Positions 1 to 12,914 of a DNA stretch of 12,914 bases are shown piece by piece. Positions within the stretch are counted from its first letter, which is position 1. Each line of letters starts with the position of its first letter. The notes beneath the pieces were generated by a model. The model did not search any database and was not told the DNA's origin. It was given only the letters and a program-made list of their open reading frames with translations. Both the position numbers and the translations under genes were made by a program. Source of the stretch: Candidatus Thorarchaeota archaeon (GTDB lineage: Archaea; Asgardarchaeota; Thorarchaeia; Thorarchaeales; Thorarchaeaceae); contig RDNZ01000061.1 of NCBI GenBank assembly GCA_011364905.1, positions 1 through 12,914 of the forward strand. Direction: 5' to 3'.

Positions 1-603
1 GACGATAATACCTCTGGGTTCTTCTTCACCAAAGATTTCTGCTTGAAACGACATAAACTCAGTCTCAGGGTCTTTCCACATGTTCATTGGCAATCCTGCC
101 TTGTTGCAGGTGTGCTCCAAGAACTCTCTTGTGTCCCATTTCCAGTCCACAGGTACCTGTGGGAGGAGGAGGCCTCGGAACATGCCTCTACTTGCAATCA
201 ATCCATCTCTCCCGACTTTGACGAGATCTAGCAGCTCCTCTGGCTTTGAATACTCTATCTTCTTGGGAGGTGTCAGGACACTCAAATCGACTATTATTGA
301 GTCAAGTTCCTTTGGAGTGACTCGTGGAAAACGCGGATCATTGATTGCTGAGTCCACCGCAGAATCAACAGTGGCTTCGACCAAGGGATAGGAGGGATAG
401 GGCCGACCGATACAGCCCCTCAGAGTGACGCGTCCGTCAAAGACCGTGTTTAATGTTACAAAGACTCCTGATTTGGCACGAAGATGTTCAGGTGTGTCTT
501 CTGGGGCTTGTAGTTTTTTTCCGGTCGTTACGATCTCATCTATAGTCTTTCTGGCAAGACCAACAAGAAAGACTCCATCATCATCGGAGTAAGCATAGGA
601 CAC
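1..603 (-). CDS. AMMECR1-domain protein (TIGR00296 / AmmeMemoRadiSam protein A family), 3' end truncated by window edge
   Basis: Not in the ORF track. Manual translation from GTG at 603 (in-frame TGA just upstream at 609-607): MSYAYSDDDGVFLVGLARKTIDEIV...KSGVFVTLN...LRGCIGRPYP...SAINDPRFPRV...LSVLTPP...GRDGLI...GLLLPQVPVDWKWD...TCNKAGLP...FQAEIFGEEEPRGIIV. LRGCIG, DPRF and GLLLPQV are family signatures. The frame is open for 201 codons to position 1. Confidence 0.93.
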   Translation of the reverse strand, partial: MSYAYSDDDGVFLVGLARKTIDEIVTTGKKLQAPEDTPEHLRAKSGVFVTLNTVFDGRVTLRGCIGRPYPSYPLVEATVDSAVDSAINDPRFPRVTPKELDSIIVDLSVLTPPKKIEYSKPEELLDLVKVGRDGLIASRGMFRGLLLPQVPVDWKWDTREFLEHTCNKAGLPMNMWKDPETEFMSFQAEIFGEEEPRGIIV

Positions 604-655
604 TGTTCATCAACTCATTATACCTTTACGAGTTCATCGTTATTATCTTGACTCT

Positions 656-1969
656 TCAGGATTTCTGGACTGGCACCTTCCCAGGAATACCCGGTCCTGT
701 GACAAACTCGCCATCATCAAAAACGACCACTCCTCCCACTATTGTGGTAACAGCATGTGCCAATACGCGCCTTCCCTCAAATGGAGTGATTTTCGCTTTT
801 GAGAAGAAGTCATTGCCTTTTATTGTGTCCTCCTGAATCCGGGCCAACACTATATCAGCGTCATACCCCTTGGTGAGAATACCTTTTGTTTCAAGTCCAA
901 TAATTCGTGCAGGAGCTGATGAACAAACTCTCAGATAGTCAATCCATGCCATTCGCTTCTCAAAGACCTCTGTCAGCATGAGTGGGAGCGTTGTTTCAAG
1001 ACCCGGAATCCCCGATGATGCCTTCAGGAAAGGTGCTGTTTTCTCCCACTTCTTGTGAGGCGCGTGGTCAGAAGCAACGCAGTCAATTGCCCATGTCTTA
1101 CACAAAGCCTCCATCAACATCTTGTTATCGTAGGGTGATCTAAGAGGGGGAAGTACTTTAGCCACTCCATAATCATGCCGAAAGTCGCCTCCTGACAGAA
1201 ACAGGTGGTGAGGAGTGACCTCTGAGGTCAGAGTGTCTTCTGCACGATTTTCATAGATCAATCTAGCAGTGGCTGCGCAGCTGACATGGCAAACATGAAG
1301 TCTTGCTTCGTACTCTATCTTTGCTTCAATGAATGATTGGACCGATTTCACCTCGTCCTCACAACTGTGCGAGAGAAAGAACTCCTCCATGTCCTTTGGT
1401 ACTTTATTATCAGGAGGCAAGTCCGGATGGAAAAGAAGTGGCATCTGACTGGCAACTGCTAGTTTTGTGCATTCCCTGATTCTTTCTGGTGTATACACTA
1501 CATCGTGGTCTAGAGGTGCGTGAGGATAGACCTTCAGGCCCAGAATATCTCGTAACATCTGGACATCGAAATTCTCTATCTTGCTGGGTATTCCAGCGTA
1601 GAACCCCACATTCACGTAGCTCAGTTCTTGTGATCGGGCTATTTTTTCGTCGAGGGTCTTCCGGTCAAGAACTGGGGGGTCTGAATTAGGCATGTCGACT
1701 ACTGTGGTCACGCCGCCAGCAGCGGCAGCCATTGTTCCAGTTTCATAGTCCTCCATGTCGGACTGTTTGAGATCCCGAAGGTGGACGTGAATGTCAATCA
1801 GGCCTGGTAGAACGTAGAGCCCTCTACAATCAATTGAATCACGGTATTGAGGTTCATCACCATGCTTGTAAACGCCTTCTATTTTGCCCGACTCGATTGA
1901 CACAGAGCGTATTGTCTCTCTCCCATTCTCTATGAAAATTCCATCCTTAAGGACCAAATCTACGGACAT
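656..1969 (-). CDS. pyrC: Dihydroorotase (type I, amidohydrolase superfamily)
   Basis: 437 aa. PGLIDIHVHLRD (metal HxH plus substrate Arg), AAAAGGVTTVVDMPN (substrate Asn), HVCHVS, EVTPHHL, PPLR, SDHAPH (catalytic Asp plus substrate His), GIPGLE and GYDADIV. Confidence 0.88.
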   Translation of the reverse strand: MSVDLVLKDGIFIENGRETIRSVSIESGKIEGVYKHGDEPQYRDSIDCRGLYVLPGLIDIHVHLRDLKQSDMEDYETGTMAAAAGGVTTVVDMPNSDPPVLDRKTLDEKIARSQELSYVNVGFYAGIPSKIENFDVQMLRDILGLKVYPHAPLDHDVVYTPERIRECTKLAVASQMPLLFHPDLPPDNKVPKDMEEFFLSHSCEDEVKSVQSFIEAKIEYEARLHVCHVSCAATARLIYENRAEDTLTSEVTPHHLFLSGGDFRHDYGVAKVLPPLRSPYDNKMLMEALCKTWAIDCVASDHAPHKKWEKTAPFLKASSGIPGLETTLPLMLTEVFEKRMAWIDYLRVCSSAPARIIGLETKGILTKGYDADIVLARIQEDTIKGNDFFSKAKITPFEGRRVLAHAVTTIVGGVVVFDDGEFVTGPGIPGKVPVQKS

Positions 1970-2018
1970 ATGCCATCAACGCCGGTTCTTCAGCGTGAGG
2001 TTGAATACCCACTAACCT

Positions 2019-2837
2019 TTACTCAGGAGCTTCAGGAACTTTAAACTTGTTAGCAACAAATCGTGTGAAATCTGTTGCGCTAATCATCCCCATGAGTCTG
2101 TTACCTTTGCCTACCACAGGTAATGAACTTAGCTTTGCGTCTAGCATCTTCGATGAGGCATCTGCTATTGAGTCGTCTGGATGGGCAAGGGGTGGTTGTT
2201 GAAGCATGGCATCCACAACACGAATTTGTCGTACCTGATTTGCACGATGCTTATCCGGTACCTCCACAGTGAACTTTGCCATGGCCTGCGCGACCATCCG
2301 TTCTGTAATCAGTCCCAGAACCCGACCTCCATCGGTGACTGGCATGCCTGCATAGCCAGCTGCAAGCATATCCCCTCTGGCCTTCACAAGCCTCGCCACC
2401 GGATTGACCTGTAAAATGTCTTCCTTGGTCATGATCTGTTCGACTTTGACATCCTTGAACTTCTGGACCAGCTGTGAAATCTGAACCTTAGTAATCACAC
2501 CGACAAGTTTTCCCTCACCGTCTACAACAGGACAACCACTCATTTCACGTTCAATCATGAGCTGTGCGACATCTGTCACCTCTTCATCAGGACCTACTGT
2601 GATGACGGGTTCGGTCATTGCACTAGATACATGGAGCCTCTTTATTGAAAGAGCTACTACCTTGCTTACACCCAATCTGTCGGCGATGTCGGCATATGTG
2701 AGAATTCCCTGAACATTCCCATTTTCCACGACAATCAGCCTTTCAACACCCTTCTTCTCAAGTAGCTCGAGCGCGTAGGACAGTCTCTGGTCCTTGTCGA
2801 TTGTGACTGGCTCGACCATAATTTGGCTCACTTTCAT
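2019..2837 (-). CDS. Stand-alone four-CBS-domain protein (two Bateman modules)
   Basis: 272 aa. Four repeats of V..IM / PV(T/V) / G(I/V/L/M)(L/I)(T/S) (GILTYAD, GVITKVQ, GLITERM, GMISATD). GGAG RBS at 2850-2847. Confidence 0.9.
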   Translation of the reverse strand: MKVSQIMVEPVTIDKDQRLSYALELLEKKGVERLIVVENGNVQGILTYADIADRLGVSKVVALSIKRLHVSSAMTEPVITVGPDEEVTDVAQLMIEREMSGCPVVDGEGKLVGVITKVQISQLVQKFKDVKVEQIMTKEDILQVNPVARLVKARGDMLAAGYAGMPVTDGGRVLGLITERMVAQAMAKFTVEVPDKHRANQVRQIRVVDAMLQQPPLAHPDDSIADASSKMLDAKLSSLPVVGKGNRLMGMISATDFTRFVANKFKVPEAPE

Positions 2838-2896
2838 TGCGATAATCTCCTATCAGTACATACACAGTCCAAGCTGGCTCATGAGTGTTTGACCAA

Positions 2897-3457
2897 CTAG
2901 CTACGACAGTTCTCACACAGATATTCGCCATCTTCTTCAATCAGATCTGTTGAGTATTCGCCGCAACTGTCACATTCGCCTCCATAGGTAATGTCCTCAT
3001 CCTCTTCTTTTTGCCGTTCAACACCATCACTTCTGAGACGTAGTGACTCGACAAGTATATCGATAAGTTCTGGAGACCAACGAAGCAGGTCTCTCGAAGT
3101 GATAATTCCTGCCAGAGAATTGTTCTTTAGAACGGCAACACGGCGAATGTTACTTCGTGCCATCACTCGCATGGCCTCTGTCAGCCCAGTCCCAGGTTCT
3201 ACATGAATGATGGGTGATGACATAATATCCCGAGCAGCTGTGGTCTTTGCGTCCCTCTCTTCTGCAATGACACGCCTGACAATGTCCGACTCGGTTATTA
3301 TTCCAAGCGGATGTTCCTTAGCAACAATGACTATGGAACCTATATCCATCTTAGTCATGGATGTGGCAACATCAAAGACGGTTGCGTCTGGCGGCATCGT
3401 TACAACATTGATAGACATGATGTCTCTCACAAACATTGAATGAGAGGGATCAGACAT
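2897..3457 (-). CDS. CBS-pair protein with C-terminal Cys4 (Zn/Fe ribbon) domain
   Basis: 186 aa. VRDIMS...GIITESDI...ARDIMSSPII...GIITSRDLL, then an acidic linker and CDSC-x15-CENC at the C-terminus. GAGG RBS upstream. Confidence 0.9.
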   Translation of the reverse strand: MSDPSHSMFVRDIMSINVVTMPPDATVFDVATSMTKMDIGSIVIVAKEHPLGIITESDIVRRVIAEERDAKTTAARDIMSSPIIHVEPGTGLTEAMRVMARSNIRRVAVLKNNSLAGIITSRDLLRWSPELIDILVESLRLRSDGVERQKEEDEDITYGGECDSCGEYSTDLIEEDGEYLCENCRS

Positions 3458-3547
3458 TTATTTAACCTCAATTTTATCAGAAGCTGGTCAGACGCCCGGC
3501 CACCAACTGGCAAAGTGTCTTCTCGAGCTGGACTTTTACATGTCTGA

Positions 3548-3553
3548 TTTTAA
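3548..3553 (-). promoter_or_regulatory. Candidate TATA box (TTTAAA) for the CBS-CBS-pyrC-AMMECR1 genes
   Basis: TTTAAA in the 136-bp spacer between the rqcH stop and the CBS-ribbon start. Motif match only. Confidence 0.3.
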
Positions 3554-3593
3554 ATGTGTCTGTGTCCTCTTGTATCAGAAAGAGCGTTCATTA

Positions 3594-5609
3594 TCACTGT
3601 TCAATTCTACCCCCTCCCGCAGGCAATACACGCATCATATCTTCCTGAGGTATTTGACTCACTAGAATGGCACGATCTTCAGGTACTAGTCCTTTGAGTC
3701 GATTGAGCACTTCCTTAACGAGTTGTCCTTTCTTTGTATCGCCTGGAACCACCTGCACATGATACTCAGTTTGTGTTGCTACTGCCGAAGGAGGCCCTGA
3801 GATTGGAATCGCATACTCCTCCTCTAGTATGACTCCTACCGATAACTCAACAGACACTTTTCGAATATAGTTCTTGGTTCCATACAACATCACAGCTCCA
3901 GATGGCAGGTATTCACCTGAAGGTGGACTAAAGCTCACCTGTTCCGGATTTACCCAGTATGCATCGCCATTCGATAGCCCATCCTGCCATGCACTGGAGA
4001 ATGTGACTGCAAACTGCGCAGCCTCTTCCAGTGTCTGTTGGCTTGGCGGCTCATCGGGCACTTTGACTATCGTGTACGGAGCCCCATGAAGTGCAGCATG
4101 CAGGAATATGTCATTTGCTCCCATTTGCCGTTTTGCAAGGGTCTCGTTACTCTTTGCATCACGTCCGCCCAAAACAAGAAAGCCCTCTGATGAAATGAAC
4201 CACCGGAACTTCTCATACCACTGCTTCTTCCTTTTCTTCACTGGAACTCTCGTGCTCTCTGGTTCCGGCACTGTCTCCTCCAATCTCTCAAGCTTCTCTT
4301 TTGTCTTCGCAATCTGTTTTCTTGCGCCTTCTGTTTTTGATTCTGCCTTTTTGGCTTGGTCATATGCAAGTGCGGCGTTATCCTGAACCGAGAGCCGAAT
4401 GTCCAGTGTCACATCAACTTCATTCAGTTTCACGATTATCTGGCCTTGAGATGGAATAATCCTCTGAATCAGCCTAGCGGAAGGGATGCCCTGTTTTCGT
4501 CCTTGGTCAATTTTGGATATGATTTCTTCCCATTGTGTTCCTGCAGCCCTTGCTTTCGTGACTGTTTCCAAGACCTCCTGAATAATAGTGAAGTGAGAAT
4601 ATATCAGCTCTCCTGCCACTCTGAGGTCTCTGGCTTTTGCCGTTAGGCTGTCTATACTCTCATTCTGTTTCTCGATTATTCGCTTTAGTTTCTCTCGTTC
4701 TATTGAGCGCGCATCTTGTTCCTGATCTTCTTCCAGTTCGGTTTCAGACACTCCAAAGAAGGCGTCGATGGCTTGGCTGAAAGTACTGAATGTTTCAATG
4801 GGCAAGTCCCTATAGAGCTCGAATCTAAACGGAAGAAATGCAGTGAAATCAGGCTCTTCGTCTTCAGCAGGTTCGTCATCAAAGACTATGTTTGGTTCAT
4901 TGACTCCTCCTCTCAGTTTATCGATAAAGATGCCCAATCCTGTCTGTAAGTCCGTCAGTGTTTGACCATCAATTTCAGAACTCATTGCTTTTGGTGAAAC
5001 TTTTCCCAACGCACAGATCTCTTCGATGCTTAGAGAATCGAGATTGAGTCGACTTGTCAATGTTCGAACTATGTTTGCATTTGAGCCCGTGATGGTTTCC
5101 TGCAGTGACCCTGGCTCAAGGCTCAGGACATCCAGTCCTCGTGGCGGAGGAAACTCATACCTGGCCTTTGGTACAACATCTCGGTCTCGCATCTTTCTGT
5201 ATCGCATAGCGACAAAGATGGTATCCTCTGGATCCAGAAGAAGTAAGTTGCCAATGCCAAACAATTCTGCGACAAGTTTGTATGTGTTGGCCTCATCTCC
5301 CACCTCGATTACAACAATTCTATCCATTTCATGTTGTCTGACCGAGGTTACTCGTTTATCCCTGAGATATTTCCGCAGCACTGTGCAGAACTTGGGTGGT
5401 GTTCTTGGTGCCTTACGTACGAACTCTGTGAGATGAATACGATGGCCAGGATGAACGAGAAGCTGTGTCGTGCCTCCACCTGGTTGGTACAGTTTTAGCA
5501 CAAAGATGTCGCCGTACTGATAGACATTTTTGATAAAGGCACCTTCTGCTGACTGACGAAGCTCAGGTAGGATGAGCCTAATGTCAATGTTACTCATCGA
5601 GTCCTTCAT
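3594..5609 (-). CDS. rqcH: Archaeal ribosome quality-control factor RqcH/Rqc2 (NEMF/NFACT family)
   Basis: 671 aa. N-terminus MKDSMSNIDI, F..VLRKYL, EMDRIV (DR motif), AELFGIGNLLL, coiled coils flanking an M domain (GELIYSH...NAALAYDQAKK), KQWYEKFRWFISSEGFLVLGGRDAKSNE and HAALHGAP (NFACT-R), then the archaeal C-terminal part (WVNPEQVS..PPSGEYLPSG). GGTGAG RBS at 5620-5615. Confidence 0.95.
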   Translation of the reverse strand: MKDSMSNIDIRLILPELRQSAEGAFIKNVYQYGDIFVLKLYQPGGGTTQLLVHPGHRIHLTEFVRKAPRTPPKFCTVLRKYLRDKRVTSVRQHEMDRIVVIEVGDEANTYKLVAELFGIGNLLLLDPEDTIFVAMRYRKMRDRDVVPKARYEFPPPRGLDVLSLEPGSLQETITGSNANIVRTLTSRLNLDSLSIEEICALGKVSPKAMSSEIDGQTLTDLQTGLGIFIDKLRGGVNEPNIVFDDEPAEDEEPDFTAFLPFRFELYRDLPIETFSTFSQAIDAFFGVSETELEEDQEQDARSIEREKLKRIIEKQNESIDSLTAKARDLRVAGELIYSHFTIIQEVLETVTKARAAGTQWEEIISKIDQGRKQGIPSARLIQRIIPSQGQIIVKLNEVDVTLDIRLSVQDNAALAYDQAKKAESKTEGARKQIAKTKEKLERLEETVPEPESTRVPVKKRKKQWYEKFRWFISSEGFLVLGGRDAKSNETLAKRQMGANDIFLHAALHGAPYTIVKVPDEPPSQQTLEEAAQFAVTFSSAWQDGLSNGDAYWVNPEQVSFSPPSGEYLPSGAVMLYGTKNYIRKVSVELSVGVILEEEYAIPISGPPSAVATQTEYHVQVVPGDTKKGQLVKEVLNRLKGLVPEDRAILVSQIPQEDMMRVLPAGGGRIEQ

Positions 5610-5632
5610 TTAATCTCACCTGGCACTCAAAC

Positions 5633-5654
5633 CGACACGATTATAACCTCGTCG
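5633..5654. promoter_or_regulatory. Candidate shared (bidirectional) promoter: palindromic TTATAA at 5641-5646 inside an imperfect inverted repeat
   Basis: CGACACGA-TTATAA-CC-TCGTCG. It is the only TATA-like element in the 79-bp spacer between divergent rqcH and the EMC6-like gene. Confidence 0.4.
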
Positions 5655-5688
5655 ATTGAACGAGCCATCGCTTAGGTAGTGGCTGTCA

Positions 5689-6021
5689 ATGAATCTCACT
5701 CCTCTTCAAAGTATCTTCAAACGAATGTTTGCACGATGGGATGACTCTCCAAATGATCAGCAGTACTATGTGAAGATTTTCTTTGCTATGGTTAGTGCAT
5801 TGATCTGCGGCGTTGCTGGTCCAATATTCGCAGGGACTCGAGGAGTGATGTTTGGTTTCCTTGTCTACGTTCTCTCTCTCTTTGTCATTCGCTATCTCTT
5901 AGAAATTAGCCTAGAGGACCTGGGTGGGACACAAAAGATGATCACAAACTCACTACCCTCATACTTGATGCTCTGGGTCGTCTTGTGGACTTTGATATAC
6001 GCCTTTACAAGTCCTGTCTGA
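5689..6021 (+). CDS. EMC6/RAB5IF(OPTI)-like three-TM membrane protein (Rab5ip family; partner of Oxa1-superfamily insertases)
   Basis: 110 aa. Amphipathic N-terminal helix, TM1 YYVKIFFAMVSALICGV, GxxG hinge into TM2, acidic loop LEISLEDLGGT, TM3 ending LWTLIY. Matches the size, topology and motifs of RAB5IF/EMC6 as I recall them; no search was run. Confidence 0.72.
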   Translation: MNLTPLQSIFKRMFARWDDSPNDQQYYVKIFFAMVSALICGVAGPIFAGTRGVMFGFLVYVLSLFVIRYLLEISLEDLGGTQKMITNSLPSYLMLWVVLWTLIYAFTSPV

Positions 6022-6047
6022 GATTCTAGCAAGTCCTCATTGTGAGA

Positions 6048-6062
6048 TTGTGAAAATCACAA
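6048..6062. promoter_or_regulatory. 15-bp palindrome TTGTGA-AAA-TCACAA, candidate Lrp/AsnC operator (or RNA hairpin)
   Basis: Perfect 6-bp arms around an A3 centre, nested in an outer inverted repeat GTGAGATT (6042-6049) / AATCTCAC (6064-6071), about 160 bp upstream of an Lrp gene. Confidence 0.5.
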
Positions 6063-6090
6063 GAATCTCACTGGTTGACAAAAGGGACTC

Positions 6091-6127
6091 GTCACTCTCA
6101 TAGTGTCATTCTCAATCGACATTCTGA
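6091..6127 (+). repeat. Three degenerate 10-bp direct repeats
   Basis: GTCACTCTCA (6091), GTCATTCTCA (6105) and GACATTCTGA (6118), spaced 14 and 13 bp apart. Confidence 0.4.
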
Positions 6128-6152
6128 AAATTGCGAATAGTACAAATAACCC

Positions 6153-6159
6153 TTAATAA
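6153..6159 (+). promoter_or_regulatory. Candidate TATA box (TTAATAA) for lrp-kaiC
   Basis: AT-rich TTAATAA about 70 bp upstream of the lrp ATG, with a GGTGGT RBS-like element at 6209-6214. Confidence 0.35.
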
Positions 6160-6223
6160 CGCTCTTTTGTGAATTATTCGATGCGCAAGAACTTCCCCAG
6201 ATAGGACTGGTGGTAGCTGAAAA

Positions 6224-6694
6224 ATGGACCAACTGGATAGAGACCTACTTCATATACTTCAGAAGGATGCAAAAACCCCCTTCACACGAATAGCAGAAGA
6301 GCTGAATCAGCCAGACACTACTATCCATTTTAGGGCCAAGAGGCTTAAAGAAAACAACACCATAACCAGATATTGTGCCCTGGTTCATCCAGAAGCTCTC
6401 GGGTACACGGCTTCGGCCATTTTTCGTATAGAGATAGGTGGTCATATTCTTCCTGAGATTAGTAAAGACCGAACACACACCTTCGCTGAAGAGCTTGCAG
6501 AGGATGAACAATATTTGTGGGTGGCAGTAGACGAGGAGCCTATGATTGTCCATGCGCTCACAATGGGAACTGGCGAAGAAGACCTTCAGAGAAGGGCTGA
6601 TGTTCTTCGGAAATCTCCAGATGTTGTAAAAGTGACTATGACGCCAGTTAGTGCTGTTGTCAAAGGATGGGAACTTAGTGGTACTTCAAAGTGA
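6224..6694 (+). CDS. Lrp/AsnC family transcriptional regulator
   Basis: 156 aa. N-terminal HTH MDQLDRDLLHILQKDAKTPFTRIAEEL...TTIHFRAKRLKENNTI...VHPEALGY, followed by a RAM-like domain. Confidence 0.92.
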   Translation: MDQLDRDLLHILQKDAKTPFTRIAEELNQPDTTIHFRAKRLKENNTITRYCALVHPEALGYTASAIFRIEIGGHILPEISKDRTHTFAEELAEDEQYLWVAVDEEPMIVHALTMGTGEEDLQRRADVLRKSPDVVKVTMTPVSAVVKGWELSGTSK

Positions 6695-6705
6695 GATGAT
6701 ATTCC

Positions 6706-7449
6706 ATGATCCGTGCCAAAACAGGAATTTCCGGACTTGACGAGCTTATTGGTGGCGGGATGATTGAAGGCAGCACCGTTCTATTATCTGGGCAGTCGGG
6801 ATCCGGAAAGACGATCTTTGGACTTCAATTCCTGTACAATGGGATTACTAAGTACAATGAACCAGGTGTGTTCGTTACTCTTGAAACACGACCAAATGAG
6901 CTCAGGGCTGAGGCCGGTCAATTCGGATGGGACCTTCATATCTTGGAAGAGAAGAACGAGTTAGTAATCATTGATGCGGCATCAAACAAAGCTGGTCAAC
7001 CAACTTCTGAGAGATATGCACTTCGGCGCGGATTCGATATGACCATGCTTGCCAGCGAAATCTATAGGGCAGTTGAAGAAGTCAAGGCGAAACGACTAGT
7101 GATTGATTGTATCTCAGCTCTTGGGATTAAATTCAGTGAGCCCTCAGAGGTGAGAAACGAGATATTTCGAATAAGTGCAATGCTTCGAGATGAACGCCTT
7201 AAGGTGACCTCCCTCTTCATTAGCGAAATAATAGAACCAAACTCGCTTAGTCGCGCAGGTGTCGAACAATTCATTGCACAAGGTCTAATTACTCTGAGGC
7301 TTTCAGAGGTGAATGGAGCTCTTGAGAGAGATCTTCTCATTTGGAAGATGAAACAAACTCCACATAGCCTGAAGAAACACTCGTTCAAAATTGGCAAATC
7401 AGGAATAGAGATTGCCACTAGAAAGAGCACAAAGACGAAGAAATCCTAG
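6706..7449 (+). CDS. Single-domain KaiC/RAD55-like RecA-superfamily ATPase
   Basis: 247 aa. KTGISGLDELIGGG, Walker A GQSGSGKT, GVFVTLE, FGWD, Walker B RLVIDC, R.L.IWKM..TPHS...F.I...GI. Starts 11 bp after the lrp stop, so probably co-transcribed. Confidence 0.92.
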   Translation: MIRAKTGISGLDELIGGGMIEGSTVLLSGQSGSGKTIFGLQFLYNGITKYNEPGVFVTLETRPNELRAEAGQFGWDLHILEEKNELVIIDAASNKAGQPTSERYALRRGFDMTMLASEIYRAVEEVKAKRLVIDCISALGIKFSEPSEVRNEIFRISAMLRDERLKVTSLFISEIIEPNSLSRAGVEQFIAQGLITLRLSEVNGALERDLLIWKMKQTPHSLKKHSFKIGKSGIEIATRKSTKTKKS

Positions 7450-7931
7450 AACAGCGAGAAAATCTGGATTACAAGATACCCCAACAGAAGAAACGGCAGC
7501 AATGGTGGAGTGATCTCTTTATCGTTTCTTTTGACTCTCCAGTAGAGATAGCCGCCAAGAAGCATGATGAAAAGCTCTCCACCGAGTCCCAAAATAGCCT
7601 CAAGAACTGGTTGATTCCAGTTTGCTAGTTCTATTCCAGGACTAAACAGGGACACAATAAAGAGAACCTTGGCATCAGCTCCACCTATCGAGCCCAATCT
7701 AAACAGAATGTATACCAGAGGGATGGTCAGTAATAATGCGGTCGCGTGCAAGACGATACTGGTAACAAAGTGGCTCGTGAAGACCGATATTGTGCCGCCA
7801 ATTATGACTCCAGCTAAAACAAGTTCATTCTTGACAGTTCTGTACCGTAGGTCGAGAATTGAATAGACCACTAGGAGCAATATGATGGTAATGAAGTGAA
7901 CAAAAGATACCAATGACAAATCAAGAACCAT
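7446..7931 (-). CDS. A24-family prepilin / class III signal peptidase (minimal form)
   Basis: 161 aa, very hydrophobic. First catalytic Asp in SILDLRYRTVKN, second in IGGADAK, C-terminal PPLLPFL. Its stop overlaps the KaiC-like gene's stop by 4 bp (CTAG). Confidence 0.85.
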   Translation of the reverse strand: MVLDLSLVSFVHFITIILLLVVYSILDLRYRTVKNELVLAGVIIGGTISVFTSHFVTSIVLHATALLLTIPLVYILFRLGSIGGADAKVLFIVSLFSPGIELANWNQPVLEAILGLGGELFIMLLGGYLYWRVKRNDKEITPPLLPFLLLGYLVIQIFSLF

Positions 7932-8088
7932 CGAGCTCTGACTCCTGCCACTAAATCATGTCAATCCTGTATATAGTCATAGCCTTTGGTCTTTACAGTA
8001 ACACAGATTAGGCACCTATCGGTTTTCGCGACCTGTGTGTGAGAGTGAAATACACGCCTCATAGCTTTACAGTTCAGAAGCTGATCGA

Positions 8089-8976
8089 ATGAATGACCCA
8101 TATCAAGTAATTCATGATACTACATTTCGTCTGTTGAAAAAGGCTGTCACAGAACTTCCCTCTGATATTAAGGAGGCTCTTGAAACCGCAAGGAATAATG
8201 AAACAGATGAAACCGCAAAGACCCAGCTCTCTGCTATTCTTACGAATTTAGAAATTGCAGAAACTGGTGTTCCTATGTGTCAAGACACTGGAATTATGAT
8301 CTTCTACGTAAAAGTCGGAGCCAAGTTCCCCTTCGCCGGTGAAATCAAAGAGGCCATAACTCAAGCTTGCCGAAAGGCGACCAAAGAAATCCCAATCAGG
8401 CCAAATGCAGTCAATCCCATTGTTGGAGGAAACTCTGGGGATAACACTGGCGTGAAGATTCCGTGGATAAACTGGGAGATTGTTGATGGTGACTCTGCAC
8501 AGATCACCGCGTTTCCAAAGGGTGGAGGAAGTGAAAACGCAAGTATTGTGGGAATGCTCAAACCCGGTGTTGGTCTGACTGGAGTGAAGAAACTTGTGGT
8601 CGATAATGCGTTTTCGTACATGGGAAAAGCCTGTGCTCCTAACATCATTGGAGTAGGCATTGGCGGCGGTGCGGACATTGCAATCAAGATTGCCAAGCAA
8701 CAATTGATGAGGCCTCTTAATGACAAGCACCCCGAACCTGAAGTTGCTAAGATTGAGGAAGAACTCATGGATGCCATCAACTCATCGGGGATCGGTCCTA
8801 TGGGTCTGGGTGGAAAGACCACAGTCCTAGGTGTGAAAGTTGACTATGCCATGCGTCATCCCGCCAGCCTTCCTGTTGGAGTTGCAGTCCAATGTTGGGC
8901 TGCACGACGAAGCACTGCAGTAATCTCGAAAGACCTCAAGGTCACGTACTTGACACATCCACTGGAGGGAAACTAA
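8089..8976 (+). CDS. fumA: Class I (Fe-S) fumarate hydratase, alpha subunit
   Basis: 295 aa. PMCQDTG, IRPN, GDNTG, KGGGSEN, ACAP..IGVGIGG, GIGPMGLGG.TT, HPAS, QCWAARR, giving three cluster cysteines. Confidence 0.92.
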   Translation: MNDPYQVIHDTTFRLLKKAVTELPSDIKEALETARNNETDETAKTQLSAILTNLEIAETGVPMCQDTGIMIFYVKVGAKFPFAGEIKEAITQACRKATKEIPIRPNAVNPIVGGNSGDNTGVKIPWINWEIVDGDSAQITAFPKGGGSENASIVGMLKPGVGLTGVKKLVVDNAFSYMGKACAPNIIGVGIGGGADIAIKIAKQQLMRPLNDKHPEPEVAKIEEELMDAINSSGIGPMGLGGKTTVLGVKVDYAMRHPASLPVGVAVQCWAARRSTAVISKDLKVTYLTHPLEGN

Positions 8977-8977
8977 G

Positions 8978-9586
8978 ATGGCGGAATATCATTTGACAAC
9001 CCCAATTTCAGAAGAGGCCGCTAGAAAACTCAAGGTCGGAGATGTGATCTACGTCACTGGCGAGCATGTATATACAGCACGTGACGAGGCACATGAACGA
9101 GCCATTGAGATGTTCGAGAAGGGAGAGAAACCCCCTGTAGACTTTGAAGGCAGTGTTATCTACCATGTAGGTCCTGTGGCTTGGAAGAAAGATGGAAAAT
9201 GGAAGATTGTTTCTGCCGGACCCACTACCAGCATCAGAATGGAGCTGTTCGAGGATGCGTTCCTCCGTGACTATAAGGCTCGAATCTTAGTTGGCAAGGG
9301 TGGGATGGGAAAGAAGACCCTTGCTGCTCTCAAGGAGGTTGGGGCTGTGTATTGTAGTTACACCGGGGGCTGTGGTGCATTGGCTGCTAAAGGCCTTAAA
9401 GAGGTCCGCGCATACGAATGGCAAGACCTTGGTATGCCAGAGGCTCTCTGGGTCATCACCGCTGAGGAGTTCGGTCCACTCCTTGTTACCATGGACTCAC
9501 ATGGCAAGAGCATACATGAAGAAATGGATAAGCTTGTCGCGAGTCGTAAGGCTGAGGTCTATGCCAAAATTGGTGTCAAAGAGTAG
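8978..9586 (+). CDS. fumB: Class I fumarate hydratase, beta subunit
   Basis: 202 aa. LKVGD, TARDEAH, YHVGP, GPTTSIRM, GKGGM, LGMPEA, FGPLLVTMDSHG. Starts 1 bp after the alpha stop, with GGAGG at 8964-8968. Confidence 0.92.
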   Translation: MAEYHLTTPISEEAARKLKVGDVIYVTGEHVYTARDEAHERAIEMFEKGEKPPVDFEGSVIYHVGPVAWKKDGKWKIVSAGPTTSIRMELFEDAFLRDYKARILVGKGGMGKKTLAALKEVGAVYCSYTGGCGALAAKGLKEVRAYEWQDLGMPEALWVITAEEFGPLLVTMDSHGKSIHEEMDKLVASRKAEVYAKIGVKE

Positions 9587-9589
9587 AAT

Positions 9590-9985
9590 CTATGGGATCA
9601 GAACCACAATCAACGAAATTAGTCCGAGCACAAGTGCAACCGATAATAAGCAATAGAAACAGCTTGTTTCACCTTGGTTCCGTATCATTCCGGATTTTAA
9701 TCCTAGGAGCCCACCCAGTACTGCAGCCACGTAAACAGCGAACTGTGGTGGGAGCACATATGGGCTATTAGGCCAATCGTTGAGTGCTGCGAATTCATAA
9801 AGTGGCAGTGTAATGGCTACGGCTACTAGAGGGATAACAATGACTAGTAGGACAAGTGTTTTTGAAGTACCTGAGTAGAATCCACGACCAGAATAATGTC
9901 CAGCCTCAATTCCAATGATCAGTGAAATCATACAGGACAGCATTGTGATTGTTAATGTTGTTACTGCCAATTCAAATCCCCACAA
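9590..9985 (-). CDS. Hypothetical four-TM membrane protein
   Basis: 131 aa, TTG start (uncertain). Four hydrophobic segments; fills the gap between fumB and the tfrA upstream region; AT-rich promoter-like sequence upstream. No family recognised. Confidence 0.6.
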   Translation of the reverse strand: MWGFELAVTTLTITMLSCMISLIIGIEAGHYSGRGFYSGTSKTLVLLVIVIPLVAVAITLPLYEFAALNDWPNSPYVLPPQFAVYVAAVLGGLLGLKSGMIRNQGETSCFYCLLSVALVLGLISLIVVLIP

Positions 9986-10006
9986 TCAGTATGACTTTAT
10001 ACCAAA

Positions 10007-10018
10007 ATAAACGTTTAT
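10007..10018. promoter_or_regulatory. Perfect 12-bp palindrome ATAAACGTTTAT, candidate operator
   Basis: Lies in the divergent spacer between the 4-TM gene and tfrA and overlaps a minus-strand TTTATTTT TATA-like element. Confidence 0.3.
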
Positions 10019-10124
10019 CGAAATCTTGACAAAATGAAACATCTACCCCGAGTTAACCAAACTCTCGTTCTTTGTAGCTAAACAGTAAGTCTTAAAGAGT
10101 GCCACAAGTCCGGACGGTTCAATC

Positions 10125-11843
10125 ATGGAGAAGCTCTCCACTGGAGGATTGTTGTTGGACTACAAGACAATCATGTGCGATGTTCTCGTTGTCGGTGCTG
10201 GCGGAGCCGGATGCCGTGCGGCAATAGAGGCTTCTAAGCACAACTTGGACGTCATCATGCTAAGTAAGGAGCTCCTCGGCAAGGCGCATACAGCCATGGC
10301 TGAGGGTGGCTATAATGTATCCCTGGGTAATGTAGACCCAGATGATAATCCCGAAACCCACTTCAAGGACACCATTGTTGGTGGTAATTATCTCAACAAT
10401 CAGAAACTTGCAGAGATCCTTGTTAATGACGCACCACAGCGTATCTTTGATTTAGAGGATATGGGGGCCGTTTTTGATAGGACTCCTGAGGGAAAGATTG
10501 CCCAGAGACCTTTTGGAAAACAGAGCTGGCGCAGAACAGCATATGCCTCTGACAGGACAGGGTCTGAGATTATGGTCACTCTTGTAGAAGGGGTTCGAAA
10601 GTCGTCTGTCCGTGTTTTTGACGAGGTCTTTTCCACGAAACTACTAGTTACAGATGGCAAAATCTCTGGAGTATGTGCTGTAGACCTGAAATATGGTGAC
10701 TATCTCGTATTTCGAGCAAAATCCGTCGTCATGGCTACAGGCGGGGCTGGAAGAATCTTCAGCGTCACGAGTAATGCGCAGCTCGATGTTGGTGATGGTT
10801 ATGGCATGGCTTACGAAGCAGGTTGTGAGATGATTGACATGGAGATGGTCCAGTTTCATCCAACTGGCATGGTCAAGCCCGAGTCCGCTAGGGGTCGATT
10901 GGTCACAGAAGCTGTCCGTGGTGAGGGAGGAATTCTTCTCAATAACAAGGGCGAACGCTTCATGAATCGCTACTATCCTCAAGTCATGGAGCTCGCAGGT
11001 CGTGACCAGGTTGCTCGTTCTATCATGACTGAGGTCAAAGAAGGAAGAGGCTCCCCAGATGGAGGTGTCTACCTGAGCATCGCACACCTTCCTCGTTCCA
11101 TCATCGAGTTTCGACTAGAGAGCATGATAGAGCAGTTTGAGGACGCGGGGGTTGATATTCGAGAAGAACCGATGCAGGTATCACCAACAGCCCACCATTT
11201 CATGGGTGGTATCAAAATCGACGAGGACTCGTCCACAAACATTCAGGGTCTCTATGCAGCTGGCGAGTGCACTGGTGGTGTCCATGGTGGAAACCGACTC
11301 GGTGGGAATGCCCTCGCAGATACACAAGTCTTTGGTGCAAAATCTGGAGAAAGTGCTGCAGAGTATGCAAAGAGTACAACTCATCTAGGTGTTAATCGAG
11401 ATGAGATTAACGAAGAATTCACAAGACTGGAGTTAATGCTGAAGCGCAAAGAGGGTGTTTCACCTGCTGATGCTCGCCACGAGCTCACTGAACTCATGTG
11501 GAGTAAAGTGCAGATCTTCAGAAAAGAGGATGAAATGCAGTATGCAGTGAAAGAGCTCAGACGTATTCAGAAAGAAGTAGTACCCATGATTAAAGTTGAT
11601 GTCCCTGTAAAGCGTTTCAATCCTGGTTGGCATCAAGCCATAGAATTTGCTCATATGGTCACAACGGCCAGAATGGTCGCAGAGGCAGCGGTGATACGAA
11701 AAGGTAGCAGAGGTGCCCACTTTCGAGTCGATGCTGATCCCAAAGATAAGGGCTATTACAATATCGTCATTCACAAGGGCAAAGAAGGTGAGATGGAGCT
11801 GCGAAAGGAAGATCTAGTGATCACCAAGATCACGCCACCATAG
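10125..11843 (+). CDS. tfrA: Fumarate reductase/succinate dehydrogenase flavoprotein, thiol:fumarate reductase subunit A type (start may be TTG 10155)
   Basis: DVLVVGAGGAG (FAD Rossmann), GKAHTAMAEGG, QRPFG, MATGG, QFHPTG, LVTEAVRGEGG, GRDQVAR, HHFMGG, AAGE, HGGNRLGGNAL, SRGAHFR. Catalytic His/Arg/Glu residues are intact. The tfr call rests on the adjacent CCG-fused B subunit. Confidence 0.88.
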   Translation: MEKLSTGGLLLDYKTIMCDVLVVGAGGAGCRAAIEASKHNLDVIMLSKELLGKAHTAMAEGGYNVSLGNVDPDDNPETHFKDTIVGGNYLNNQKLAEILVNDAPQRIFDLEDMGAVFDRTPEGKIAQRPFGKQSWRRTAYASDRTGSEIMVTLVEGVRKSSVRVFDEVFSTKLLVTDGKISGVCAVDLKYGDYLVFRAKSVVMATGGAGRIFSVTSNAQLDVGDGYGMAYEAGCEMIDMEMVQFHPTGMVKPESARGRLVTEAVRGEGGILLNNKGERFMNRYYPQVMELAGRDQVARSIMTEVKEGRGSPDGGVYLSIAHLPRSIIEFRLESMIEQFEDAGVDIREEPMQVSPTAHHFMGGIKIDEDSSTNIQGLYAAGECTGGVHGGNRLGGNALADTQVFGAKSGESAAEYAKSTTHLGVNRDEINEEFTRLELMLKRKEGVSPADARHELTELMWSKVQIFRKEDEMQYAVKELRRIQKEVVPMIKVDVPVKRFNPGWHQAIEFAHMVTTARMVAEAAVIRKGSRGAHFRVDADPKDKGYYNIVIHKGKEGEMELRKEDLVITKITPP

Positions 11844-11854
11844 GAGGCCAGAAG

Positions 11855-12914
11855 ATGACAAAGACATTCAAAACAAGCGTGCAGCGCTACAATCCTGACA
11901 GTGATGATGCACCATACTACCAAGAGTTTGATGTTGAATACGAACCTGGTATGACTGTTCTTGACACGCTGCTCTATATCCAAGACAAGTTCGATTCAAG
12001 CTTAGCATTTCGTTGGGAGTGCAGAGGCGGCCAGTGTGGTTCATGCGCCGTGAAAGTCAACAGAACTGCTCGCATCGCATGTCGGACCAAGGTGAATCCT
12101 GAGGAGAATCTGGTCCTCGAACCACTCGAAAAGATGCCTGTCATCAAGGACTTGGTCACTGATATGGCTCAGACATCGTATCGCATCAGACGTATCCGTC
12201 CATATGTTGCGCGCGATAAGCCGCCACAGCATCCAGAGATTATCCATGCCGAGGAGATTGAGAAAGTCCGTGAGATCCGTAAATGCATTGAGTGCAGTGC
12301 CTGTCTGTCCAACTGCCCAATTGTTCATGAAACCTGGGACTACCCGGGTCCAATGATTATCCGCCAGATTGCCAGACTTGCACTTGATCCACGTGATGTT
12401 GAAGATCGTGTTGCTATGGCGCTTGATGAGAAGGTCTATAGCTGCACGACCTGCAAAATGTGTACTGACATTTGTCCAAAGAAGATAGATGTCCCCTCGT
12501 TGGCTGTAGAGCTACTCCGTGCAAAGGCAGTCGAGGCTGGCTATCAACTGGTAGAGGGTCAGCAGGCATTTGTTGATGCAATCAATAAAACTGGCAGGTC
12601 TGTTCCTGTTAAGGATGCCCCTCTCCTCAAACAACTCGAGGATGCAGAGTTCTTTGTGGAAAACCCCCGAGACCGAGTTGCTTTCTTCACCGGCTGTCTC
12701 ATAGACTACCGGATGCAGAGTACTGGGAAGGCTTTGATTGAGGTACTGAACCGCAACAATGTGGATGTGGTTGTTCCCAAAGAACAGTGGTGCTGTGCTA
12801 GTCCAGCATTCAGGACTGGAGACCTCAACACTGCTCACGCTGCAGCACGAAGAGTCACTGAGATATTTGAGGAGGCCTGCAGGAAGTACGACTGCGACAC
12901 AGTGGTGGTCGCAT
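11855..12914 (+). CDS. tfrB: Thiol:fumarate reductase subunit B type (SdhB-like Fe-S domain fused to a CCG/HdrB-D-like domain), truncated by window edge
   Basis: Not in the ORF track. ATG 11855 after GGAGG (11843-11847); open for 353 codons to the edge. CRGGQCGSC...C ([2Fe-2S]), CIECSACLSNCP and CTTCKMCTDICP (two [4Fe-4S]), then VAFFTGCLIDY...VVVPKEQWCCASP (first CCG-type domain, C281-x31-C313C314). Confidence 0.9.
   Translation, partial: MTKTFKTSVQRYNPDSDDAPYYQEFDVEYEPGMTVLDTLLYIQDKFDSSLAFRWECRGGQCGSCAVKVNRTARIACRTKVNPEENLVLEPLEKMPVIKDLVTDMAQTSYRIRRIRPYVARDKPPQHPEIIHAEEIEKVREIRKCIECSACLSNCPIVHETWDYPGPMIIRQIARLALDPRDVEDRVAMALDEKVYSCTTCKMCTDICPKKIDVPSLAVELLRAKAVEAGYQLVEGQQAFVDAINKTGRSVPVKDAPLLKQLEDAEFFVENPRDRVAFFTGCLIDYRMQSTGKALIEVLNRNNVDVVVPKEQWCCASPAFRTGDLNTAHAAARRVTEIFEEACRKYDCDTVVVA

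Follow-up and report, generated by a model that had tools for sequence, protein, structure and literature searches.

A Thorarchaeotal member of the EMC6/OPTI-like family, encoded head-to-head with NFACT

We analysed a stretch of 12,914 nucleotides from Candidatus Thorarchaeota archaeon (assembly GCA_011364905.1, contig RDNZ01000061.1, positions 1 to 12,914 of the forward strand), which is called the window below. The subject of the analysis was a short gene at 5689..6021. An earlier reading of the window, made from its letters alone (here the sequence-only reading), described the product as a protein of 110 amino acids (aa) with three transmembrane segments. It compared the protein with OPTI (RAB5IF/C20orf24), the partner of TMCO1 in the GEL complex of the multipass translocon of the endoplasmic reticulum (ER), and with EMC6, the partner of EMC3 in the ER membrane protein complex. 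The description of the product was correct: the open reading frame is exact, hydropathy revealed three hydrophobic segments, and the AlphaFold2 (AF2) model agreed with both. The ATG at 5689 is supported as the start by the N-terminus (M-[ND]-L-T-P-L), which is conserved in 43 aligned homologues. The gene and the parts of its product are as follows.

5689..6021, + strand: EMC6/OPTI-like gene (P0001), ATG start, 110 aa
5698..5727, + strand: short N-terminal helix, aa 4-13, with basic K11, R12 and R16 (AF2 secondary structure)
5749..5829, + strand: membrane helix 1, aa 21-47, with the family motif Y-[YW]-x-[KR] and a small-residue face A..G..CG (AF2, hydropathy, family alignment)
5836..5898, + strand: membrane helix 2, aa 50-70, with invariant R51, G52, G56 and Y60 (AF2, hydropathy, alignment of 43 homologues)
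5899..5928, + strand: acidic loop E-I-S-L-E-D-L-G-G, ending in G79 and G80, an OPTI-like 'acidic-GG' loop (GG invariant in 43 homologues)
5929..6009, + strand: membrane helix 3, aa 81-107, with T86, N87, W96 and the motif W100-T-L-x-Y (AF2, family alignment)

The AF2 model, obtained from the 43 homologues, had a mean predicted local distance difference test score (pLDDT) of 89.1 and a predicted template modelling score (pTM) of 0.81, and placed helices at residues 4-13, 21-47, 50-70 and 81-107. The short N-terminal helix and the three packed membrane helices superposed on solved EMC6 and OPTI structures. All seven top matches of the structure search were OPTI or EMC6, and they were clearly separated from the remainder. 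The N-terminal helix, which is probably cytoplasmic, paired with the N-terminal part of OPTI (103-residue VIA superposition). The acidic-GG loop aligned to IDEEEYGG of OPTI, and W100-T-L-x-Y of helix 3 corresponded to VIWIIFYT of OPTI and FWTFLYG of EMC6. Across the homologues, the loop between helices 2 and 3 contained on average 2.9 acidic versus 1.4 basic residues.

Approximately 150 close homologues were found, all of them in Thorarchaeota or other Asgard metagenome genomes and with one copy per genome; the nearest (65-95% identical) came from genomes labelled as Thorarchaeota or 'Promethearchaeota'. It had been expected that such a protein would be annotated only as 'hypothetical'. This is true for the Thorarchaeotal homologues, apart from some with a spurious JGI label 'amino acid permease', but NCBI already lists one homologue, from Odinarchaeota, as 'Rab5-interacting family protein'. 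When all PDB sequences were searched with the single sequence (phmmer), the sole match was chain 9 of 7TUT, which is OPTI (E = 0.0044, residues 12-105) and is entitled 'Obligate partner of TMCO1 insertase'. In the HMMER alignment of the Thorarchaeotal protein and OPTI (7tut_9) the paired motifs were RMFARWDD/RSDAAWED, YYVKIFFAMVSALICGV/YWFRQIIAVVLGVIWGV, AGTRGV/RGFLGI, LEISLEDLGGT/LQIDEEEYGGT and LWTLIY/IWIIFY. Every pair that the sequence-only reading had given reappeared in this alignment, and the motifs are indeed collinear.

A profile of 43 Thorarchaeotal sequences was searched against 1.84 billion representatives and matched 61 proteins at E ≤ 1e-3, which together with the query formed a broad family profile of 62 representatives. 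Against the 177,635 PDB sequences the broad profile matched OPTI (E = 4.9e-16, 61.7 bits), human EMC6 (E = 6e-7, 32.4 bits) and yeast EMC6 (E = 3e-4); nothing besides OPTI and EMC6 scored better than E = 1. The Pfam family PF07019 'EMC6', formerly Rab5ip, covers both EMC6 and RAB5IF, and 51 of the 62 representatives matched it individually (best E = 1.6e-14), while 13 of the 62 matched EMC6_arch (PF19094). Since the family profile reaches such an E value with OPTI and most representatives match PF07019, the resemblance is more than chance, and the proposed membership of the EMC6/OPTI (Rab5ip) family was borne out by profile and by fold. Judged by these scores, the Thorarchaeotal and Asgard branch is nearer to the eukaryotic model PF07019 than to EMC6_arch. 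We looked up the source of 20 of the 61 profile matches: one was eukaryotic, the OPTI orthologue of the fungus Dimargaris, and the other named members were all archaeal (Baldr-, Odin- and Hodarchaeia, Methanomethylicaceae, Thermofilum). A search of a protein atlas led to clusters of archaeal proteins without names, some of which carry EMC6_arch or EMC6; even the nearest scored below 0.9, so that they serve as leads only.

We observed that the family resembles OPTI more than EMC6, as the sequence-only reading had claimed. With the family profiles OPTI gained 55.5-61.7 bits and human EMC6 28-32 bits, a lead of approximately 27-30 bits. When the fungal row was removed from the profile, the values were 55.5 bits for OPTI (E = 4.4e-14) and 28.8 bits for EMC6 (E of approximately 1e-5), and the profile of Thorarchaeotal sequences only gave 20.5 and 11.8 bits, respectively. 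In the Asgard/TACK form, then, the closer similarity is to OPTI, as these profile scores confirm. OPTI (PDB 7TUT chain 9), the closest sequence match, nevertheless differs from the archaeal protein: the latter lacks the N-terminal extension of approximately 20 residues, belongs to the cytoplasmic membrane, in a host that has neither PAT nor BOS complexes, and would have a DUF106/YidC-like partner instead of TMCO1 proper. Similarity to EMC6 (6WW7 chain F, 6WB9 chain 6) was weaker (21-32 bits). The helix 2-3 loop of EMC6 is longer and basic, whereas that of the Thorarchaeotal protein is acidic and carries GG, and EMC6 acts in a complex of eight to nine subunits that has no archaeal counterpart. 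GET2/CAML, the partner of GET1/WRB, is likewise proposed to act as the three-helix partner of an insertase of the Oxa1 superfamily (PMC8675477); no GET2 sequence or structural match appeared in any search made, and GET2 was not looked at further.

The protein of Dimargaris verticillata (P0185) matched OPTI at E = 2.3e-17 (7TUT chain 9) and EMC6 at E = 0.07, although its UniRef name is EMC6. Fungi were stated to have no recognisable GEL homologues (Sundaram et al. 2022, PMC9630114); contrary to that statement, this zoopagomycote has a clear OPTI orthologue.

The type of protein and its OPTI-like flavour have already been published, and the present protein is their Thorarchaeotal member. One EMC6-like protein was reported in each of nine archaeal proteomes; the one of Lokiarchaeum matched human C20orf24 (OPTI) better than EMC6, and heterodimers of YidC with the EMC6-like protein and of TMCO1 with C20orf24 were predicted (Lewis and Hegde 2021, PMC8675477). 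OPTI was named by Sundaram et al. 2022 (PMC9630114), who found OPTI and TMCO1 to be mutually dependent and mentioned 'GEL complex homologues in archaea'. EMC6 also features in a 2026 preprint's list of Asgard-eukaryote structural clusters. The published archaeal EMC6-like proteins (Lokiarch_50810, MJ0606; PF19094) belong to the same broad family, occur once per archaeal genome and have a predicted YidC/DUF106 partner, and Lokiarch_50810, like the protein studied here, resembles C20orf24 more than EMC6. The Thorarchaeotal branch differs from them in favouring PF07019 (E = 9e-4) over EMC6_arch (E = 0.17) and in the two DUF106 paralogues of its host genome.

The sequence-only reading had noted that the DUF106/TMCO1-like partner is not encoded in the window and had advised locating it in the genome. 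Two DUF106/EMC3_TMCO1 genes were present in the host genome (3.08 Mb, approximately 81% complete), both on contigs other than that of the window.

Contig C72, 500-1069, - strand: DUF106 paralogue A (P0123), adjoining adenylate kinase (adk)
Contig C68, 1450-1974, + strand: DUF106 paralogue B (P0124)

A position near secY/adk is the classic one of archaeal YidC (Makarova et al. 2015, PMC5898192). The two paralogues were 42% identical to each other. P0124 matched MJ0480 and TMCO1 (the latter at E = 4e-6 alone and 8.5e-7 with the family profile), with EMC3 at just 0.035, while P0123 and its shallower family matched MJ0480 only. Two copies of DUF106 are usual in the host's family (37/40 genomes with a completeness of 90% or more), as they are in one large Loki-type family, and most other Asgard families have one. 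Because the paralogues are far closer to each other than to any eukaryotic paralogue, their sequences suggest a lineage-specific duplication. The EMC6/OPTI-like gene was single-copy in 73 of 76 genomes of the host's family, and Loki-type genomes with two DUF106 genes likewise had one EMC6-like copy. It was also found in several Asgard families with a single DUF106 and, in one copy each, in 35 of 41 sampled Thermoproteota genomes. This sample includes the Thermoprotei genome found first, through a family member; that genome has a single DUF106.

In the window, the EMC6/OPTI-like gene diverges from a gene for a ribosome quality-control factor.

3594..5609, - strand: NFACT (RqcH/NEMF-type ribosome quality-control factor; Pfam NFACT_N 2e-59, NFACT-R_1 1e-30, NFACT-C 4e-6)
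5610..5688, no strand: divergent intergenic region, 79 bp between the start codons, probable bidirectional promoter

The same head-to-head pairing was observed at 49 of the 51 loci checked (15/16 in Asgard genomes, 34/35 in Thermoproteota with a copy), the Thermoprotei genome included. It was found at all 12 fetched loci of other Asgard genomes, which represent at least seven families, even where the proteins were only 22-30% identical. Among five further Asgard genomes, three had the adjacent pair, one had the genes 5 kb apart and one had neither. The last of these, a Loki-type genome (G316, family f9; one contig, approximately 90% complete), had no match to the EMC6/OPTI-like family and no full-length NFACT_N, which could be due to joint loss or to strong divergence. 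The intergenic region contains a core, ACCGA-n5-TT[AT]TAAC-n5-TCGATTG (approximately 5633-5660), that is invariant in five Thorarchaeotal genera while its flanks vary. This core is probably the common TATA/B recognition element region of a bidirectional promoter, and the two genes are therefore probably co-expressed. We found no mention of a pairing of NFACT/RqcH/NEMF with EMC6 in the literature searched.

Our best explanation, which we consider rather likely, is that the gene encodes the Thorarchaeotal member of an archaea-wide EMC6/OPTI-like family, that its product is the partner of a DUF106 insertase, that its likeness to OPTI is ancestral and that it is probably co-expressed with NFACT. 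The most likely binding partner of the protein in the cytoplasmic membrane is the YidC-like DUF106 insertase; we propose this because of the homology with the EMC3-EMC6, TMCO1-OPTI and GET1-GET2 pairs and because of the predicted MJ0480-MJ0606 dimer of M. jannaschii. It would stabilise the insertase and may help to form a bilayer entry site for nascent transmembrane segments at the ribosome. By analogy with these pairs, we infer both the heterodimer with DUF106, for which the host genome offers two candidate partners, and the insertase function. As the family is single-copy and occurs in most of the sampled Thermoproteota and in Asgard lineages with one DUF106, it looks like the partner that archaea in general use with YidC/DUF106, in a state resembling the ancestor of EMC6, OPTI and probably GET2. 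On the simplest reading, OPTI and TMCO1 are the least-changed eukaryotic descendants. We interpret the OPTI-likeness as a retained ancestral state, since TMCO1 is likewise the best eukaryotic match of the one Thorarchaeotal DUF106 protein that has such a match.

Three observations weigh against this explanation. Taken alone, the sequence remained below the Pfam cut-offs, with 20.1 bits against the required 23.3 for PF07019 (E = 9.3e-4) and 12.8 against 26.7 for EMC6_arch (E = 0.17); the comparison with the Rab5ip family that had been suggested as a check was thus sub-threshold for the single sequence and positive for the family representatives. The gene is linked to NFACT and not to any DUF106 gene. 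Finally, two DUF106 paralogues stand beside one EMC6-like protein, which bears on stoichiometry and on the choice of partner.

Statistics and model together establish that Thorarchaeota carry an insertase partner of the OPTI/EMC6 type. This fits the published view that the insertase heterodimers of the ER descend from an archaeal YidC/EMC6-like pair, and in that part it is not new. Potentially weightier are the very stable pairing with NFACT and the duplication of DUF106 in Thorarchaeotal and Loki-type genomes, both of which offer testable ways into the organisation of membrane-protein biogenesis in archaea.

The sequence-only reading went further and suggested that the protein may be a precursor, in archaea, of the GEL complex. 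In the strict version of this idea the protein would be an orthologue of OPTI only and would pair with the TMCO1-like P0124, a separate EMC6-type subunit would serve the adk-linked DUF106, and the split of GEL and EMC would predate eukaryotes. The idea itself is not new, because Lewis and Hegde 2021 had reported the Loki protein to be closer to C20orf24/OPTI. It agrees with the lead of OPTI over EMC6 in bits, and with the matching of TMCO1 by paralogue B and its family while paralogue A matched MJ0480 only. A second, very weak EMC6-like open reading frame in the genome would also suit it (contig C47, 1249-1575, - strand: P0122, three-helix, 108 aa). Against it stands the copy number, as the family is single-copy, is widespread in Thermoproteota and is found also where there is just one DUF106, and Loki-type genomes with two DUF106 genes still have one EMC6-like match. 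The Thorarchaeotal paralogues, moreover, are far closer to each other than to the eukaryotic ones. P0122 matched the broad profile at E = 1.8e-5 and had an hhalign probability of 90.6%, but it showed no BLASTP similarity to P0001 and no PDB match, was patchily distributed (7/40 genomes in the family) and gave a poor AF2 model (pTM 0.36). We therefore did not accept it as a second EMC6-like paralogue and keep it as a lead only; being so weak and patchy, it cannot carry the argument. A dedicated archaeal GEL precursor is thus improbable. The OPTI-like sequence is not evidence for a dedicated pre-eukaryotic GEL complex, and nothing found here requires one.

P0122 has a 4-nt overlap with the start of a gene for a membrane-anchored beta-propeller protein of the arylsulfotransferase type (C47, 2-1252, - strand), and the two are translationally coupled.

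It was also considered that the protein may be mainly a partner of NFACT/RqcH, for example a membrane site for the rescue of stalled membrane-bound large subunits, and not, or not only, an insertase partner. The retention of the pair and its short intergenic region across Asgard and Thermoproteota loci, the one conserved TATA-like core between the genes and the lack of both matches in G316 are in line with this. Gene order, however, indicates co-regulation at most, and both genes are housekeeping and ribosome-related, so that common expression could suffice. The eukaryotic homologues have a well-defined role as insertase partners. NFACT lacks membrane segments, and no membrane partner of it is known. 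In addition, a block of approximately 12 kb (window 656-12913) is largely syntenic in several Asgard families: amidohydrolase-CBS-CBS-NFACT, followed by EMC6-like-AsnC-KaiC-like-A24 peptidase-fumarase AB-fumarate reductase-type flavoprotein and Fe-S subunit. As the block as a whole, metabolic genes included, is syntenic, part of the Asgard pairing signal is plain synteny. We consider a primary role with NFACT quite unlikely. A further reading, in which the pairing reflects a real functional coupling of ribosome-associated quality control with a YidC-type insertase, is possible but doubtful; if true, it would represent an archaeal precursor of the quality control that acts at membrane-bound ribosomes. 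In Thorarchaeota, the duplicated DUF106 might moreover provide two insertase forms that share or divide the single EMC6-like partner.

Chance resemblance, in which the membrane helices of a small, hydrophobic but unrelated protein would imitate EMC6/OPTI, is effectively refuted by the full-length collinear profile match to OPTI and EMC6 and to nothing else in the PDB, by the seven top structural matches and by polar motifs that the proteins have in common beyond their hydrophobic cores (GG loop, T-x-G, W...W..Y).

The neighbours of the EMC6/OPTI-like gene in the window are, besides NFACT, a KaiC-like ATPase, an AsnC-type regulator, an A24 prepilin-type peptidase, fumarase and a fumarate-reductase-type flavoprotein. 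Together with NFACT, whose NFACT-C domain is present, they mark the host as archaeal. The Asgard synteny of the 656-12913 block is unusually stable for archaea.
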